Assembly (NCBI GenBank): GCA_964291265.2
Contig: OZ219747.1
Coordinates: forward strand, 1,152,001-1,216,000
Direction of reading: 5' to 3'
DNA: 64,000 bases
Origin: Alphaproteobacteria bacterium
GTDB taxonomy: Bacteria > Pseudomonadota > Alphaproteobacteria > SP197
Shown: positions 6,598 through 20,550 of the stretch, in pieces
How positions within the stretch are numbered: position 1 is the stretch's first letter
Layout of the letters: each line of letters starts with the position of its first letter
Notes under the pieces: model-generated
The model's input: the letters and a program-made list of their open reading frames with translations, nothing else
What the model was told of the DNA's origin: nothing
The model's database searches: none
Program-made: the position numbers and the translations under genes

Positions 6598-7663
6598 CGG
6601 GGAGCCCTTCCTTGGCCCGGCGGTCAATCCATCGGATGGCCATGACAGCCAGGCACGCCCCACGATCGTTCGGAGGCCCCGCGTCCTCATCGATTCGCCC
6701 GGTGAACGCGGCTGAGCGCTCTTCGGGTCAAGGACGTGACGGTGCAGGCTCATGGCCGGATGGCCGGCGGTTTCCTGTCGGCTCACCCGACGGGCACATC
6801 GAGGCGATACGCGCAGAACCTGATGTTGCTCGCAGCCAGGTACACCGACGCCACCCGTGAACCTCCGGCCGAAGAAGCGCACCGAGGACGGAGTCGTCTC
6901 GGCACAGCAGAAGCCAAGCGGCGGACGTCGCCGCGAAGAACAGGTGTTGGGCGCGTGCGGCTTGCGCGGATACCGCGCACTGTGAAGGCGACCGCCGCCA
7001 TGCCGGCATCCCTCCAGGTGGCAGCGCTCCGCCTCGGCCGCATCAATCCTTATCAAGGAGAGGCCAGACATGGGCGCAGGAAAGCATGGAACCCGGGAAG
7101 GAAACGTGCGACATTGACTGGCCTCCGCTGATCTCATCGTCACGGAGACAAGCCCCTCGGCCGACTTCTTGCAGGTCGGTCGAAGGGCAACCACCCCAGA
7201 CCAGCAGACAATTCAAGCAGAACCGACGGAATCCACGTCAGAAATCACGCAAACGCTTTCTGGCGCACCTGGAATCCGTCATGTCCGTGGTGTTGCTGTC
7301 GCGGGATTCACCCCGCCTTCAGCGTGATTTCGCCAACTCCAGGAACTGGCGTTTCCGTCTCGCTTCTCACGGCGGTGGTTCCTGCATCCGCGAGCAGTCC
7401 GTGATGGAAGGTGGGGACAACACGCCGGGGGCGGTGCTCTGCGAACGTTCAGGACCAGGTGCTGCGCAGAAACGGCGTCACTTTCGGCCCCGGCGACCCG
7501 TAGTGTTCCCTGTGGAACCTGCTGGCACTCGCCGGCATCGACGAAGACGACTGGACGCCTGAGGTTTCGATACTGGACCCCGCCGGGAACGCTGGATGAT
7601 GGGCGAGAAGAGCGGCCGGGCTTGCGGGTTCTTGGCGCCCTCCCGGAAGGCGCCCTTGCGGAT

Positions 7664-14141: not shown

Positions 14142-14294
14142 CTTGATTCTTCCCCCCGGAGGTCCGTCGTGACGCATGCGCACGGCACCGCTCCTCCTTG
14201 ATCGCCAGCCTAGTCAGCCGGTCCGACGCGCGTCAAGACTGTGATCACAGATTGACAGGAAAGGGCAGGACCGAGCAGATTGCCGGGACGTACC

Positions 14295-14627
14295 GTGGCC
14301 CCCTGTTCCTTCCTACACCTGATGGCGACAGCTCTCGGTCTCGGTCCCCGCCCGGGTCCCGTGTTCGGCCGGGCCGTTCTCCGCAGGCGATACGACGTCG
14401 CGATCATGGGCGGCGCAGGTCACGGTCTTGCGGCCGCATACTACCTGGCCGATGAGCATGGTGTCAGCGATGTCGTGGTCATGGAGAAGGGCTGGTTGGG
14501 CGGTGGCAATACGGGGCGCAACACGACCATGGTGCGCGCCGACTACCTGCTGCCGGACAACCAGGAGTTCTTCGGCCATGCGCGCTCCATGTGGCCGCCC
14601 CTGTCACGCGAGCTCAACTTCAATGTC
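14295..14627 (+). pseudogene. soxB: sarcosine oxidase beta subunit, N-terminal fragment
   Basis: YDVAIMGGAGHGLAAAYYLA, EKGWLGGGNTGRNTT, LSRELNFNV; similarity ends abruptly after about 110 codons. Confidence 0.85.
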
Positions 14628-15152
14628 ATCGATGTCCCGCCCGAGGCGCTGTCGTTTCCGGGATACCCGGTTCGACGGCGTTCGTGCGCGTGTCTTCCGC
14701 ATCAGCTACTCCGGCCAACTGGCCTACGAAATCCATGTCGGCGCGAAGCACGGCGAACGGTTGTGGGATGCGGTGGCGGCGGCCGGCACGCCCTTCGGCA
14801 TCGCGCCCTATGGCGTCGAAGCCCTTGATGTCATGCGGATCGAAAAGGGCCATTGCGCCGGCAGCGAGTTCGACGGCCGCACGGCACCCGCTGAACTGGG
14901 CCTCGACCGCATGACAGGGCGTGTAAGCGCCAGCATTCCCTTCATCAGCTGTTGGTCGGGTTTCGTCGGACCGGCGCACACCCATTCCTCGCGGCGCGAT
15001 TCTCGTGGCCGGGACGGCACGATCCGAAGCTCTGGGCCACGTGACCGCATCCGTCATCGGTCCGACGCTCGGTCAGCCCATCGCGTTGGCCATGCTCCGG
15101 GGATCGATCGGCGACGATGAACTCCGTGCCGTCTCGTCCGTCGCCGGCCCTC
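14628..15152 (+). pseudogene. soxA: sarcosine oxidase alpha subunit, C-terminal (GcvT-like) fragment, frameshifted and interrupted by the IS21 element
   Basis: RVFRISYSGQLAYEI, PYGVEALDVMRIEKGH, DGRTAPAELGLDRM. Confidence 0.85.
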
Positions 15153-15201
15153 TGTTGATGGCTGCATAGAACGGCGGGATTTCGGCGATTTGCCGCGCTT
15201 T
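15153..15201 (+). repeat. left terminal inverted repeat (IRL)
   Basis: 34/49 identity by hand alignment to the reverse complement of 20430-20478, with a perfect core TAGAACGGCGGGAT (15167-15180). Confidence 0.9.
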
Positions 15202-15220
15202 GTCAGGGTCGTGTTTCTTC

Positions 15221-15312
15221 CCTGTTGTCAGGTCCTATTGTCACGTCCTGTTGTCGTGGGTTCAGTGTTCGGCTGATTGTCTCCCCGAGCGCCGCCCGTT
15301 TTCCTATTGTCG
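15221..15312 (+). repeat. subterminal CCT(G/A)TTGTC repeats
   Basis: Copies at 15221, 15234 and 15247 (13-bp period) and at 15303; an inverted partial copy ACAATAGG lies at 20340-20347 near the right end. Confidence 0.7.
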
Positions 15313-15636
15313 TTTTGGTCCGGTTCGGATTGTTCCGTCGGCCTCTGCTTCGGTCTTGGTGACGGTTGCCGGGAGGGTTTCGGTTCCGAGGCACTCGCGG
15401 GATCGTCTGTTTTCCCTGTGGTCTGGGTCGTGTTGTCCGGTCCCGGGGCGGCGTTTTTGCCGCCGCCCCGGGTGGATGCTAGATCGGCATCGAAAGAAAG
15501 AGCGATGCGATGCCGGGCAGAGTTGTGATGACGCCCCCCGGCGCAGCACCCGGACGAGCCGGTCACGGGGGACCGAACTCCCGTGTATTGTCGAGCCATT
15601 TTGCGTCCGGGTCCACCCCCGCTCTCGAGACGGATC

Positions 15637-16113
15637 GTGTGCACGACGGGACGACTGTTCAACTGCAAGCGGTGTCAGCGGCAGGTTGTTCTCTGCCGGT
15701 CGTGTGACCGGGGGCATGTGTATTGCTCCGATGAGTGCAGGGAGCGGTCCCGGATCGAGCGGCGCCGCGCGTCGCGTCGTCGCTACCAGAGCACGCTGAG
15801 GGGCCGTGAGACGGGCCGTCACCGCCAGCGGCGTTACCGGCTCCGCAAGGCGGAGGAGGCGCGTGCGTTGAAGGCCAGGGCGGCGATGCTTGCCGAGATC
15901 ATGGGCACGCAGACGTCTGCTGTGGTGCTGCTTGGCGACGTTCCGGCGGTGTCTGGAGACGCCGGTTCCGAAGAAATCGTTACGGACCACCCTTCCCGAC
16001 TGCTGCCGACCTCCCTACCTGCGGTTGTGAAGGCGCGAGAGCGACGCGAATCGCCGCTTCGGTGCGCCCGGTGCGGACGGGTCGTGACGCATGTGGTGCT
16101 GAGGGACCTGTGA
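15637..16113 (+). CDS. Cys-rich, basic hypothetical protein (putative Zn-binding) upstream of istA
   Basis: LFNCKRCQRQVVLCRSCDRGHVYCSDEC, an Arg-rich helix, and C-terminal CARCGR; start codon uncertain. Confidence 0.7.
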   Translation: MCTTGRLFNCKRCQRQVVLCRSCDRGHVYCSDECRERSRIERRRASRRRYQSTLRGRETGRHRQRRYRLRKAEEARALKARAAMLAEIMGTQTSAVVLLGDVPAVSGDAGSEEIVTDHPSRLLPTSLPAVVKARERRESPLRCARCGRVVTHVVLRDL

Positions 16114-16145
16114 TGCGGCGTTGAGGAACCAAAGGGAGGGAGTTC

Positions 16146-17639
16146 ATGGCGATCGACGAGGACACGCGGGCGACGATCGTGCGGCTGTCGCGGGCCGAGG
16201 GCTGGGCTGTGGGGACGATTGCCCGGCATCTCGGCGTGCACCACGGCACGGTGACGCGGGCGCTCAAGGCGTCGGGGCAGGAGCGGCGGCCGCGGGCCAA
16301 GCTCATCGACCCCTTCGTTGCCTTCCTCGGGGAGCGTCTTGAGGCGTCGCCGGACCTTCCGGCCAGCACGCTCTGGCGACAGGTCGTGGCCCTGGGCTAC
16401 CGCGGCGGCGAGGATCACTTCCGTCACGACCTGCGCCGCCTCGGGCTGAGGCCGGTGAAGAGGCCCGAGCCGTCGCTGCGGCTGAGCTTCCTTCCGGGCG
16501 AGCAGGCGCAGGTTGACTGGGCCGAGTTCGGGAAGGTCCGCATTGGCCGGGCGGAGCGCAGGCTCATGGGGCTTCTCGTCACCCTCAGCTACTCGCGCCA
16601 GACTGTCCTGAGCCTGTTCCACGACGCGCGGATGGCCAGCTTCCTGCAAGGCCATGTCGAGGCTTTCGCGGCATTCGGGGGTGTGCCGCGGAGGCTTCTG
16701 TACGACAACCTGAAGAGTGCCGTGGTGACGCGCCGCGGCAAGGCGGTCACCTATCATCCGATGCTGCTCGGCCTCGCGGCCCACTATGCCTTCGAACCGA
16801 GCGCCGCCTGGCCCAGGAGCCCGCAGGAGAAGGGCCGCGTGGAACGCCGTGTGCGCTTCGCGCGCACCGGGTTCTTCGCCGGGCGCGACATCACGGTCCC
16901 GCTCGGCGAGCTCAACGCCGCGGTTCGGGAGTGGTGCTTCGGCGCCGCCGCGGAGCGGCCCTGGCCGGACGACGACAGTCTCCTGGTGCGGGACGCCTTC
17001 GCCCGGGAGAGGGAGCACCTGATCGTCCTTCCCGTCGACCCCTTCCCGCATCACGAGGTCCGCCCGGTGCGCATCGACAAGACCTGCCACGCCCGCTTCG
17101 ACACCAACGACTACAGCGTTCCGGGTAGCTTCTCCAAGGCCCTGCTGACGCTGGTCGCCGACCGCGACGAGGTCCGCATCCTCGACGGCGCCGACGAGGT
17201 CGCGCGCCACCGACGCTCCTACGACAGGAAGCAGGCCGTCACCGATCCGGAGCATGCCAGGGCGATCGCCGCGGGCAAGCGGCGGGCCCGCTCCATGAGC
17301 GTCCGCGACCGGGTCCTGCGCACCGTGCCGCGGGCCGAGGAGATGCTGGCGCGCGCCGGGACCAACGGGCGCAACGTGGCCTCCTGCGCCCGGATGCTGG
17401 AGACGCTTCTCAACGCGCACGGCGCCGACGCTCTCGACCGGGCTGTCGCCACGGCGCTGGAGCGCGGCTCGTGCCACCCCGAAACCGTGCGCGTCATCAT
17501 CGAGGAGCGCCGCCGGGAGCAGGGCCTGCCGCCCCTCAGCATCGCCGACGACGGCCGCGGCGGCCGTGGCACGACGCCGCGGGGGACCGCTCTCGACGCC
17601 TACGACAGGCCCGAAGCCAGCGCCAGGAACAAGACATGA
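16146..17639 (+). CDS. istA: IS21-family DDE transposase
   Basis: N-terminal HTH (IARHLGVHHGTV); PGEQAQVDW, LLYDNLKSAV, KGRVERRV (DDE); NDYSVP; SD GGAGGG. Confidence 0.95.
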   Translation: MAIDEDTRATIVRLSRAEGWAVGTIARHLGVHHGTVTRALKASGQERRPRAKLIDPFVAFLGERLEASPDLPASTLWRQVVALGYRGGEDHFRHDLRRLGLRPVKRPEPSLRLSFLPGEQAQVDWAEFGKVRIGRAERRLMGLLVTLSYSRQTVLSLFHDARMASFLQGHVEAFAAFGGVPRRLLYDNLKSAVVTRRGKAVTYHPMLLGLAAHYAFEPSAAWPRSPQEKGRVERRVRFARTGFFAGRDITVPLGELNAAVREWCFGAAAERPWPDDDSLLVRDAFAREREHLIVLPVDPFPHHEVRPVRIDKTCHARFDTNDYSVPGSFSKALLTLVADRDEVRILDGADEVARHRRSYDRKQAVTDPEHARAIAAGKRRARSMSVRDRVLRTVPRAEEMLARAGTNGRNVASCARMLETLLNAHGADALDRAVATALERGSCHPETVRVIIEERRREQGLPPLSIADDGRGGRGTTPRGTALDAYDRPEASARNKT

Positions 17640-18337
17640 GCGAGCTCAGGGAGCGTGCCCGGGCGCTCGGCCTCCACGGGCTCGTCGAACGCTGGGACGA
17701 GGTCGCCGGGACCGCATGGATCGAGGAGGTGGTCAGCGGCGAGGAACAGGCCCGCAGGGCCCGCAGCCACGAGCGCCGCCGCGCCGCGGCGCGGCTGCCC
17801 GCCTTCAAGCCCCTGGCGGACTTCGACTGGACATGGCCGCGCGACATCAGCCGGGCTCATGTCGAAGCGCTCCTCGGCCTCGGCTTCGTCGACCGTGCGG
17901 ACAACGCCGTGCTCGTCGGCGGGCAGGGCACCGGAAAGACCATGATCGCCGCCAACGTGGCGCACCAGGCCCTGCTGCACGGCCACACCGTCCGCTTCGA
18001 GAAGGCGCCGGAACTGCTCGAGGCACTCGCCGAGACCGTCTCGCGCAGCGAGCTGCGCCGCCGCCTCGCGATCCTCGCCAGGCCCCGCCTGCTCGTCCTC
18101 GACGAAATCGGCTACGTGACCCTCGAAAGCCACCATGCCGACATCCTCTACGCCATCGTCTCGCGGCGCTATCAGCGCCGCTCGACCATGGTCACGACAA
18201 GCCTCGCCTTCGCCCAGTGGGACCGCGTCTTCCCCAGCGCCTCCGGCATCGCCGGCACCGTCGACCGGCTCATGCACGACGCAACCCTCATCTCCATCGA
18301 CAGCGACTCCTGGCGGCTCAGGCGTGAAACCCGATAA
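17636..18337 (+). CDS. istB: IS21-family AAA+ helper ATPase
   Basis: ATGA overlap with istA; KPLADFDW, GGQGTGKT, LLVLDEIGY, DRLMH, SWR. Confidence 0.95.
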   Translation: MSELRERARALGLHGLVERWDEVAGTAWIEEVVSGEEQARRARSHERRRAAARLPAFKPLADFDWTWPRDISRAHVEALLGLGFVDRADNAVLVGGQGTGKTMIAANVAHQALLHGHTVRFEKAPELLEALAETVSRSELRRRLAILARPRLLVLDEIGYVTLESHHADILYAIVSRRYQRRSTMVTTSLAFAQWDRVFPSASGIAGTVDRLMHDATLISIDSDSWRLRRETR

Positions 18338-19217
18338 ACCCCGCCGCGTCGACTTCGACGCCGTCAAGCGCATGCCGTTCGAACGCATCGCCGCCGACTG
18401 GGGATACGTCCGCGACGAACAGGCCTCGACACGCGCCAACCCCGTCCTGTGCGCACCCGGCCTGCCGAAGCTCGTCACGAAGTGCCTCAACAACGGACAC
18501 TGGGTCTACTTCAACACCCAGAACGATGAAGACAACGGAACCGTCATCGACTTCATGCTCAACCGCGGACTGGCCTTCGCCGACATCTGCACCCGCTTCA
18601 CAGCACCCGACACCGCGCCACGCGACTTCCGCAGCCTCTGGGCCGCGGCAACGCCCGATGCGGCCCCGGACTGGCTCACCGGGCGCGGCATCCTCCCGGA
18701 GACCCTCGACACCTGCCGCCCCCTGGTCCGCCGCGACCACAACGGACGCGTCCTCTTCGCCCATCGCAACAGGAAGCGAAAGCTCACCGGCTTCGAGATC
18801 GGTCCCCCCGACGGACCGAAACGCTTCGCCACCGGTGGAACCCGAAGCCTGTTCGCCGTCCGCGCCGGAACCGCCGCGGACCTCGAGGCCCTCGTCATCA
18901 CCGAAAGCGCCGTCGACGCCCTCAGCCTGGCCCAGATCGACCAATGTCCCCCCAGCCACGCCTTCCTCTCCACCGCCGGGGCACCCTCGCGAAGACAGCA
19001 CGAACAGATCAGCCTCGCCGCAAGCAGCCTGCCCAACGTCAGGACCATCGTCCTCGCCCAGGACCACGACGAGGCCGGAGAGCGACAGGCCGAAACCCTG
19101 CGCAAAAAGATGAAGCTCCCCTCCCACGTCTCGTTCCACAGACGCAGACCGCCGGAAAACGCCGACTGGAACGACGTCGTCAACGCCAGGACCAAAGAAC
19201 CACAAGCGAGATCATGA
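18324..19217 (+). CDS. Toprim-domain primase-like protein (DUF3991/Toprim_2-type)
   Basis: GTG overlapping the istB end; GTVIDFM, WLTGRGI, VITESAVDALS, VLAQDHDEAG (DxD), DWND. Confidence 0.85.
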   Translation: MKPDKPRRVDFDAVKRMPFERIAADWGYVRDEQASTRANPVLCAPGLPKLVTKCLNNGHWVYFNTQNDEDNGTVIDFMLNRGLAFADICTRFTAPDTAPRDFRSLWAAATPDAAPDWLTGRGILPETLDTCRPLVRRDHNGRVLFAHRNRKRKLTGFEIGPPDGPKRFATGGTRSLFAVRAGTAADLEALVITESAVDALSLAQIDQCPPSHAFLSTAGAPSRRQHEQISLAASSLPNVRTIVLAQDHDEAGERQAETLRKKMKLPSHVSFHRRRPPENADWNDVVNARTKEPQARS

Positions 19218-19534
19218 CCACGTCCGTCACAAGGAGACCACTCATGCCCCTCACGCCCGCCGAAAAGCAGCGGCGATACCGGGAACGGCGCAAGGCCGGC
19301 ATCCCTCCCGTCCACACCCCAAAGCATCGTGACCGGCGCTCGCGACCGCAACGCTGGAACGACGCCGTGGCCGAACTGCGCGCCCTGCAGGACGAATGGC
19401 GTGACCGCCTCGACAGCATCCCCGAAACCCTCCGTGACACGCCTTACGGAGAACGCCTGCAGATCGTCGCCGATGCCGACATCGAGGCCCTCGAGGACAT
19501 CGAACCGCCACGCGGCTACGGAAGGGATACGTGA
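19214..19534 (+). CDS. small hypothetical protein with basic N-terminus (possible DNA-binding)
   Basis: ATGA-coupled to the Toprim gene; PLTPAEKQRRYRERRK...RPQRWNDAVAEL...PPRGYGRD. Confidence 0.75.
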   Translation: MTTSVTRRPLMPLTPAEKQRRYRERRKAGIPPVHTPKHRDRRSRPQRWNDAVAELRALQDEWRDRLDSIPETLRDTPYGERLQIVADADIEALEDIEPPRGYGRDT

Positions 19535-20104
19535 TCCCGCAAGACCCTTGAACGCGGTCACGCGTTACCATCCAGGAATGAGAACGTCTCACCCCGACGC
19601 GCCGCTCAGCCTCCCCGGGAAACTCCCGGGCCGTCCAAACGACACCGCATCACGAGACTGCCGCAGCCGCTGGCCGGACTGGCTTACAGGTCGCAGCATC
19701 CGCCCGAAAACACTCAACGCCTGCCGCACCCTGCAGGACGAATGGCGTGACCGCCTCGACAGCATCCCCGAAACCCTCCGTGACACGCCTTACGGAGAAC
19801 GCCTGCAGATCGTCGCCGATGCCGACATCGAGGCTCTCGAGGACATCGAACCGCCACGCGGCTACGGAAGGGACACGTAATCTCGCAAGACCCTTGAACG
19901 CGGTCACGCGTTACCATCCAGGAATGAGAACGTCTCACCCCGACGCGCCTCTCAGCCTCCCCGGGAAACCCCCGGGCCGTCCAAACGACACCACATCACG
20001 AGACTGCCGCAGCCGCTGAGCCGCAGCAACGCCCGATCCGCCGCCGGACTGGCTCACAGGTCGCAGCATCCGCCCGAAAACACTCGACGCCTGCCGCACC
20101 CTGC
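19383..20104 (+). repeat. tandem duplication, 346-bp period
   Basis: Copy 1 starts at 19383 and copy 2 at 19729 (CCCTGCAGGACGAATGG...); near-identical, with copy 2 carrying about 24 extra bp near 20018-20042. Confidence 0.92.
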
Positions 20105-20330
20105 GCCGCCGCAACCGCAACGCACGCAGCCTCTTCGCCCAGCGCAACAGAAACCGTCAGCTCTCCAGCCTCGAGATCGTCCCGCCCGACGAACCACGAC
20201 GAGGACGGAGAACGCCAGAACGAAACCACGCGCAAAAGCCTGAAGCTCCCCTCCCACATCACGTTCCACAAACGCCGAACGCCAGAAAACGCCGACCGGA
20301 ACGACATCGTCAACGTCAATGCAAGACCAA
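19987..20330 (+). pseudogene. degenerate, internally deleted copy of the Toprim gene
   Basis: Aligns codon-for-codon to 18609-18813 (with TGG changed to TGA) and then to about 19062-19195. Confidence 0.85.
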
Positions 20331-20429
20331 TGGGATCCAACAATAGGCAGAAAACAAAGACCGGGCGGACCTTCGTCCAATGCCGCACGTTCTCCTGTCG
20401 TGGTCACCCACTCACACGATCAGCGCCCA

Positions 20430-20478
20430 AAAGAGCGGTTCTCCGCCAATATCCCGCCGTTCTAAATCGCCGCCGACA
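20430..20478 (-). repeat. right terminal inverted repeat (IRR)
   Basis: ATCCCGCCGTTCTA at 20451-20464 is the reverse complement of the IRL core; the end is ACA followed by CCCTC. Confidence 0.9.
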
Positions 20479-20550
20479 CCCTCGATTGTCGCGGTGGAGA
20501 CCACCGGTCTGCCCTTCTACGATGCCAACGGCGGCAGGATGCGTGCATGA
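20479..20550 (+). pseudogene. soxA: extreme C-terminus of soxA, displaced by the IS21 element
   Basis: Reads IVAVETTGLPFYDANGGRMRA*, matching the SoxA-type terminus PFYDxxGxRxxx*. Confidence 0.75.

Follow-up and report, generated by a model that had tools for sequence, protein, structure and literature searches.

A linear, end-locked G+T gradient in a Toprim-bearing IS21 element and in other insertion sequences

The element and its gradient

The window analysed here, a stretch of 64,000 nucleotides from an alphaproteobacterial genome (assembly GCA_964291265.2, contig OZ219747.1, positions 1,152,001 to 1,216,000), carries at 15153-20478 of its + strand an IS21-family element of 5326 bp with TG..CA ends, and the skew of this element is a linear gradient of fixed polarity, in which each strand is G+T-rich in its 5' part. 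The whole gradient is contained within these bounds; a first-pass annotation of the same DNA had located the skewed element correctly, but its limits, 15201..20360, were too narrow. The boundaries were derived from 30 full-length copies in the genome, 98-100% identical and present in both orientations (52 matches with the partial ones), which start with TG in 29 cases, end with CA in all 30 and are flanked by a target duplication of 5-7 bp in 26. In the window, the two 5-bp copies of this duplication lie at 15148-15152 and 20479-20483, and the terminal inverted repeats occupy 15153-15201 (+ strand) and 20430-20478 (- strand), their outer ends being set by the copy boundaries and the arm 15167-15201 being 77% complementary to 20430-20464. 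A related sequencing run, X2, has the empty insertion site. By its IstA, downstream IstB, termini and target duplication the element is a member of the IS21 family.

All of its genes are on the + strand. The first, ORF0 (15583-16113), encodes a cysteine-rich protein that is intact in 30 of 30 copies and sits 5' of istA in most related loci; a Pfam search with it gave no match, and it falls in unnamed Atlas clusters at 0.97. It is followed by istA (16146-17639), encoding the DDE transposase (NF033546, 222 bits, cut-off 160), and istB (17636-18337), encoding the AAA+ helper ATPase (PF01695, 171 bits, cut-off 24; 191 bits against NF038214, slightly below its cut-off of 200), the two reading frames sharing 4 bases. 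A DUF3991/Toprim primase-like gene (18324-19217, start inferred; Toprim_2, E 5e-13) is intact in 29 of 30 copies, and the predicted fold of its product (model pLDDT 68) resembles the primase domains of Twinkle, DnaG and T7 gp4 with E 1e-5 to 1e-3. The protein keeps the Toprim glutamate and a DxD-like motif, which we take to be the acidic catalytic residues. Downstream lies a small ORF (19244-19534), 42-44% identical to an ORF of relatives L032-L042 and without match in a Pfam search, then a 294-bp segment present in two copies, 97% identical (19379-20018), and two decayed copies of parts of the Toprim gene, at 19986-20195 (from 18608-18817, 81% identity) and at 20193-20318 (from 19063-19188, 85% identity). 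The left end contains four copies of a 9-base T-rich motif (15221-15311, + strand), three of them spaced 13 bases, which are possible protein-binding sites, and a promoter scan returned 0 sites. The element follows closely on a gene (14280-15120) that is truncated and frameshifted and has aminomethyltransferase (GCV_T) pieces. Repeated DNA, with many insertion sequence (IS) families and nested insertions, is abundant in this genome (G000), where it accounts for about 25% of the sequence of contig C2 and 17% of that of contig C1.

Along the + strand, G+T slides from 0.62 in the left non-coding end and 0.56 in ORF0 to 0.45 in istB, 0.38 in the Toprim gene and 0.36 in the right non-coding end. 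The cumulative curves of G+T, T-A and G-C all peak within istA, at 17013, 17044 and 16746, respectively, and divide the element into a G+T-rich arm (15153-17013), the 5' part of the top strand, and an A+C-rich arm (17014-20478), in which the 5' part of the bottom strand is G+T-rich; duplications have lengthened the right end, which is part of the reason why the crossing near 17013 is not at the midpoint but to its left. The flanks, described earlier as unskewed by eye, have a G+T of 0.506 and 0.503 over 2 kb, and the base counts given at that time are exact, with 62 T and 9 A at 15201-15360 and 61 A and 13 T at 20201-20360, the T-richness of the former being partly due to the four motif copies. 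Likewise, the reported passage from G-rich to C-rich third positions in genes of a single strand is borne out, G/(G+C) at four-fold sites being about 0.7 in ORF0 and 5' istA and 0.23-0.16 in the Toprim gene. This trend, from 0.7 to about 0.2, runs across gene borders, over a host baseline that is flat at 0.40 (1266 host ORFs), and at the non-coding ends the T/A skew exceeds the G/C skew. The G+T difference between the halves, 0.148, was reached by none of 8761 other windows of the genome (overlapping, of the same size and without this element; sd 0.022). The skew thus changes inside the element, as the first-pass annotation had it, but the abrupt flip that it proposed is the poorer description: on all bases a line (Akaike information criterion 7195) fits better than the best step (7221) and than a decay confined to 0.8 kb or less of the ends (7208), line and step being about equal on four-fold sites alone (835.8 and 838.2).

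Several ordinary sources of compositional bias were tried and rejected. A generic within-gene gradient is ruled out by the host, whose ORFs have a mean d of 0.002 (n=1266) and whose genes slope at 0.00 (n=600), and amino-acid make-up by slopes that persist with codon-family terms. Host replication bias is ruled out as well, since leading-strand and lagging-strand positions of istA are almost equally frequent (15 and 14 copies), the host gap being 0.42 versus 0.39; with the same balance of copies, IS orientation bias, of the kind treated in the consulted part of PMC3971601, would in any case give a uniform skew.

Insertion sequences with and without a Toprim gene

According to the first-pass annotation, the element's own primase drives a mini-replicon or a Mu-like replication from two ends and so creates the skew, which was presented as independent support for the primase hypothesis. 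Consistent with such a model, the two most skewed units of the genome, the IS21 element and a second transposon family, both carry DUF3991/Toprim, the second together with a RecA-fold ATPase (AAA_25), the predicted Toprim fold is DnaG/gp4-like, and the slope is negative in 10 of 10 Toprim-bearing IS21 elements. Slopes were taken at four-fold sites over istA-istB, per kb, with codon-family correction and at a GC of at least 55%, in relatives found with IstA (39 of 80 loci delimited and kept) and in control IS21 loci (28 of 60 kept, with ends accepted by eye), loci without a neighbouring istB or without both ends and near-identical copies being dropped; as the elements are related, the sign counts given here and below are not independent across elements. 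Elements with Toprim slope at -0.69 per kb, ORF0-type relatives without it at -0.58 (negative in 23 of 26) and two-gene IS21 at -0.60 (20 of 23), and the groups with and without Toprim do not separate (p 0.50). In a quick tree of IstA the ten Toprim-bearing elements fall in only two clades, and in the second (L043-L056, L061) the Toprim glutamate is replaced, yet the ramp is present. Since the ramp is the same in Toprim-less IS21 and is found in the clade lacking the glutamate, the skew is no evidence of primase action: ordinary IS21 elements, proposed earlier as a control, largely unlink it from the Toprim gene, other IS families show it too, and a primase-like function must rest on other evidence.

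Replication from both ends in the manner of Mu is unsupported, because Tn3, the classic cointegrate family, has no consistent slope. A free mini-replicon left no sign in run X1, perhaps the source sample, where the contig depth is ~33x that of the flank and the genome has 37 full matches to istB, depth not being equal to copy number. As a cause of the skew, the Toprim gene is ruled out by the equal slopes without it and by the shallow slope of the AAA_25-bearing relatives described below; it would be an accessory gene, and the primase-driven origin is, for the skew, largely refuted and very unlikely indeed. What sets the element apart is mainly its length. The slope per kb is constant in IS21 from 2 to 5 kb (d versus length, rho 0.36), and with equal slopes per kb with and without Toprim the total skew scales with length; accordingly, the element ranks first among 68 IS21 in total skew, but 10th per kb.

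The Toprim gene of the clade L043-L056, L061 is a distinct DUF3991/Toprim, closer to that of the second transposon family, and the Toprim-less relatives (L046-L109) carry 3' of istB one of several small conserved ORFs, of 65-80, 100-130 or 140-150 residues, seven of which gave no match in a Pfam search. The second family (G000:C2:47062-52221; L011 1063-6222, genes on the minus strand) has four full copies and partial ones, encodes a cysteine-rich ORF, an rve transposase, an ExeA-like ATPase, the AAA_25 protein and DUF3991/Toprim, makes target duplications of 4-5 bp and has a ramp of -0.70; a remnant of one of its ends, 89% identical, lies at 6828-7258 of the window. Of the 12 relatives whose downstream sequence is long enough, 10 have the AAA_25 gene, which suggests that the family is one carrying a helicase-like gene. 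The relatives with this gene average just -0.26 (n=10), and Toprim, sought in 15 scored relatives of this family, gave 0 matches.

The ramp is a general mark of several IS families in GC-rich bacteria, with or without Toprim. Of 15 other transposase genes in the same genome, 14 have a slope of the same sign. In other genomes (loci used of those fetched: IS3 26/30, IS630 27/30, IS256 18/30, IS110 24/30, Tn3 11/12, IS4 23/30, then thinned at 80% identity) the slope per kb is -0.85 in IS3 (negative in 17 of 19), -1.26 in IS256 (8 of 9), -0.78 in IS110 (16 of 18) and, steepest of all, -2.06 in IS630 (19 of 19); Tn3 gives -0.05 (5 of 9), and IS4, taken at all GC contents, shows no clear ramp (-0.27, between-element standard error 0.33, negative in 14 of 21). 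In actinobacteria, ramps were found in 2 of 2 IS630, 3 of 3 IS256 and 5 of 10 rve-type elements. Below 55% GC the slope is present in IS4 and IS630. An IS66 element of the genome (L013 449-1126) carries a D12-class adenine methyltransferase-like gene.

Origin of the gradient

We tentatively favour, without giving it an even chance, the view that the gradient was written by damage to single-stranded DNA during copying of the element from its ends. In the copy-out pathway, as described in the part of PMC7780238 consulted, nicking at one end leads to the closure of one strand into a circle, which replication then converts, and in IS256-type elements either end may act as donor; the pathway has been proposed for IS21 (PMC11208146; 10.1101/2023.06.07.543989, both in the parts seen), and IS621 releases a single-stranded circle (10.64898/2026.08.31.748434, in the part available). 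In such a scheme, one strand would form a circle and be displaced by synthesis that is primed in the flank, and C>T, A>G and G>T changes would be most frequent in the 5' part of the displaced strand, which is displaced first and copied last. As either end could serve as donor, both strands would be exposed mirror-wise and the bias would sum to a ramp whose total size increases with element length; the Toprim protein might prime the displaced strand. Copy-out is favoured because of the linear shape, the constant IS21 slope per kb, the ramps in the circle-forming IS3, IS256 and IS110, the flat host genes and the one-sided decay of the Toprim duplicates.

This decay was followed through 35 changes polarised with two outgroups, with G>A 12 times and C>T once (p 1.6e-4), C>A 8 times and G>T once (p 0.09), and T>C 3 times and A>G 0 times. 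Read on the bottom strand, the G>A and C>A changes are C>T and G>T, which are those expected of single-stranded DNA. The tendency of the decayed copy to change towards A had been noticed before, and many changes are indeed to A, a recount giving 16 of 39 sites in place of 15 of 38. The idea that the two halves were exposed as single strands in opposite polarity remains the best reading of the skew in view of this one-sided decay, once freed of its link to a primase.

A different picture is given by isolated private changes, which are symmetric: among 386 such changes from 22 families, C>T occurs 110 times and G>A 131 times (rate ratio 0.99). Private changes are also symmetric in the 13 own-genome families grouped as skewed (0.96), a split from the weak families that was made after the slopes were known. 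In the same 13 families, changes shared between copies lean toward the ramp (1.34 and 1.63; Fisher p 0.019 versus private). With private changes symmetric and shared ones biased, the bias seems to enter with copy-to-copy events and not during residence, although the evidence that it enters at events passing variants among copies is suggestive only. Lineage-specific four-fold changes, scored against two outgroups, are few and mostly G/C exchanges. The symmetry of private changes bears directly on transcription-associated mutation in resident copies, where host transcripts entering from either side would expose the non-template strand near the ends. This would produce the right polarity whatever the transposition chemistry, but besides the unbiased private changes, the decay local to the ends fits worse than the line and the G/(G+C) of 0.40 in host genes is far under the 0.7 of the left arm, and we regard it as very improbable.

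Several observations weigh against copy-out. IS630, the family with the steepest ramp, is cut-and-paste in vitro (PMC2170065, in the part consulted). In the genome studied, 2 of 5 IS4-family genes and the ISAs1 gene ramp strongly; among these IS4/ISAs1 transposases (L015, L020, L021, L022, L024; 3 of 5 with strong ramps), several have an N-terminal DruA domain (PF14236). IS3, IS256 and IS110 genes below 55% GC have no negative slope, weak or absent, and haloarchaeal elements slope oppositely (+0.84, n=6; IS630 +1.04, n=4; small samples), the reversed genes being IS4-type and IS630 genes of haloarchaeal plasmids (L447-L484). Some multi-copy non-transposase genes ramp too, with slopes of -0.77, -0.59 and, over 6.7 kb of a three-copy gene, -0.23. 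The ramping genes include a gene of 2250 residues in three copies (G000:C2:2339603-2346350, 3663578-3670343) and a lipoprotein-like gene (C2:2512-4632); multi-copy fibronectin-III surface genes are uniformly G-rich, without a ramp. The contrast between shared and private changes is lost without polarising (p 0.25), and in the weak families the two values point in different directions (1.90 and 0.79). A search for end-to-end junctions in the genome and in the contigs of three runs gave none, contigs being prone to drop rare forms. Finally, we estimate that spontaneous deamination is probably not fast enough for a brief exposure to contribute more than the mutation of resident copies, so that a long-lived or error-prone step must be assumed. 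Copy-out as such does not explain IS630, the haloarchaeal reversal or the non-transposase repeats.

The first and last of these point to the main rival, ectopic recombination of the kind associated with repeats and GRINS, for which we see a smaller but appreciable chance. Breaks within a multi-copy unit would yield single-stranded 3' tails, which would be mutated and spread by gene conversion; the exposed strand would be the top one on the left side of a break and the bottom one on its right side, so that the polarity would be the same for any transposition chemistry. Recombination therefore covers more of the awkward cases than copy-out, namely IS630, the skewed IS4/ISAs1 genes and the ramping non-transposase genes, and alleles seem, when read by eye, to be distributed over the 30 copies as a mosaic. 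GRINS have been linked to gene conversion and to RuvA variants, and transposases are their commonest gene class in 4 of 5 phyla (PMC8256042, in the parts consulted). Nevertheless, this explanation requires breaks to be enriched within the element, and under it the total skew should not depend on length, whereas in IS21 the slope per kb stays the same between 2 and 5 kb. There is also no ramp in a non-transposase gene with 17 copies (-0.14 +- 0.28) or in most duplicates of two copies.

The haloarchaeal reversal would be accommodated by selection at the RNA level, whereby transcripts of both strands are kept C-rich and G-poor towards their end so that Rho halts them inside the element. To our knowledge, haloarchaea are without Rho. 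Such selection would also be independent of chemistry, as IS630 demands, and a bias in shared and not in private variants fits it equally well. However, the excess of T/A over G/C skew at the non-coding ends is not what it predicts, and the 8 C>A changes of the decayed duplicates would weaken C-rich sites. Cyanobacteria, which as far as we know also lack Rho, were sampled with 5 IS630 and 3 rve-type elements, and their IS630 still slope at -1.84 +- 0.56 for G versus C (n=5), though not on all four-fold bases. We consider this reading quite unlikely.

Returning to copy-out, the ramps of insertion sequences could be a fossil of copying, their polarity and slope reporting which strand was single-stranded and how long this state lasted. 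An unrecognised single-stranded step would then exist in IS630 and in some IS4-like elements, haloarchaeal elements would be reversed, and the two primase-bearing families would be self-priming and make their own second strand; taken as a whole, this is speculative and we think it unlikely. If the ramp does record exposure as single strands, sequence alone would be enough to read the pathways of hundreds of hitherto unstudied IS families, the unexplained skews of GRINS would gain a rule and a testable cause, and many substitutions in a transposon lineage would arise in its own copying or recombination instead of during residence.

Relation to known systems

The closest likeness is with GRINS, which, in the parts of PMC8256042 consulted, are also repeated units in which GC and TA skews are correlated, take both signs along a single strand and are most marked at third codon positions, their mechanism being left unexplained. 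GRINS are duplicated over >500 bp at >80% identity, and the element is present in 30 full copies at 98-100% identity. Scored in 150-base windows with a step of 30 and a threshold of 0.15 for each skew, its mean absolute TA skew is 0.231 and its mean absolute GC skew 0.150, which is at the threshold (0.222 for 18000-20478, 0.117 for 15153-16600); none of 384 unique windows and 3 of 67 other IS21 pass both thresholds. The element therefore borders on the GRINS definition. The correlation of GC and TA skews over the element (r 0.59) comes from the ramp, being about 0 inside each arm, and whereas GRINS show abrupt changes of skew, with no orientation rule in the parts consulted, here the ramp is smooth, locked to the ends and of fixed polarity.

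With the IS21 family, known from the IS5376 structures (PMC10122671, PMC11208146), the element shares the TG..CA ends, istA-istB, the 5-bp target duplication and, as measured here, the gradient per kb; it is twice as long as usual and has in addition the cysteine-rich ORF0, DUF3991/Toprim, a small ORF and, as its tail, the decayed duplicates. Mitochondrial DNA has a similar linear gradient of C>T and A>G attributed to the time spent single-stranded (PMC3269015, in the part seen), in an autonomous replicon with defined origins, while the present case is a chromosomal element and symmetric on both strands. A parallel to the Toprim gene may be seen in the primase-polymerase/helicase IEE, where primase activity also acts at the replication step of a copy-out IS; as far as the consulted part of 10.1101/2023.06.07.543989 goes, that enzyme is of the archaeo-eukaryotic primase (AEP) type, is encoded outside the element and promotes excision, whereas the predicted protein described here would be a DnaG-type Toprim encoded inside it. 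A literature search that covered few subscription journals returned no account of an end-locked polar gradient in insertion sequences or of a primase inside IS21. What the present analysis adds to these known systems is a rule for the polarity, the linear form of the ramp, a slope per kb that does not vary within IS21, and the pattern of families and hosts in which the ramp occurs.

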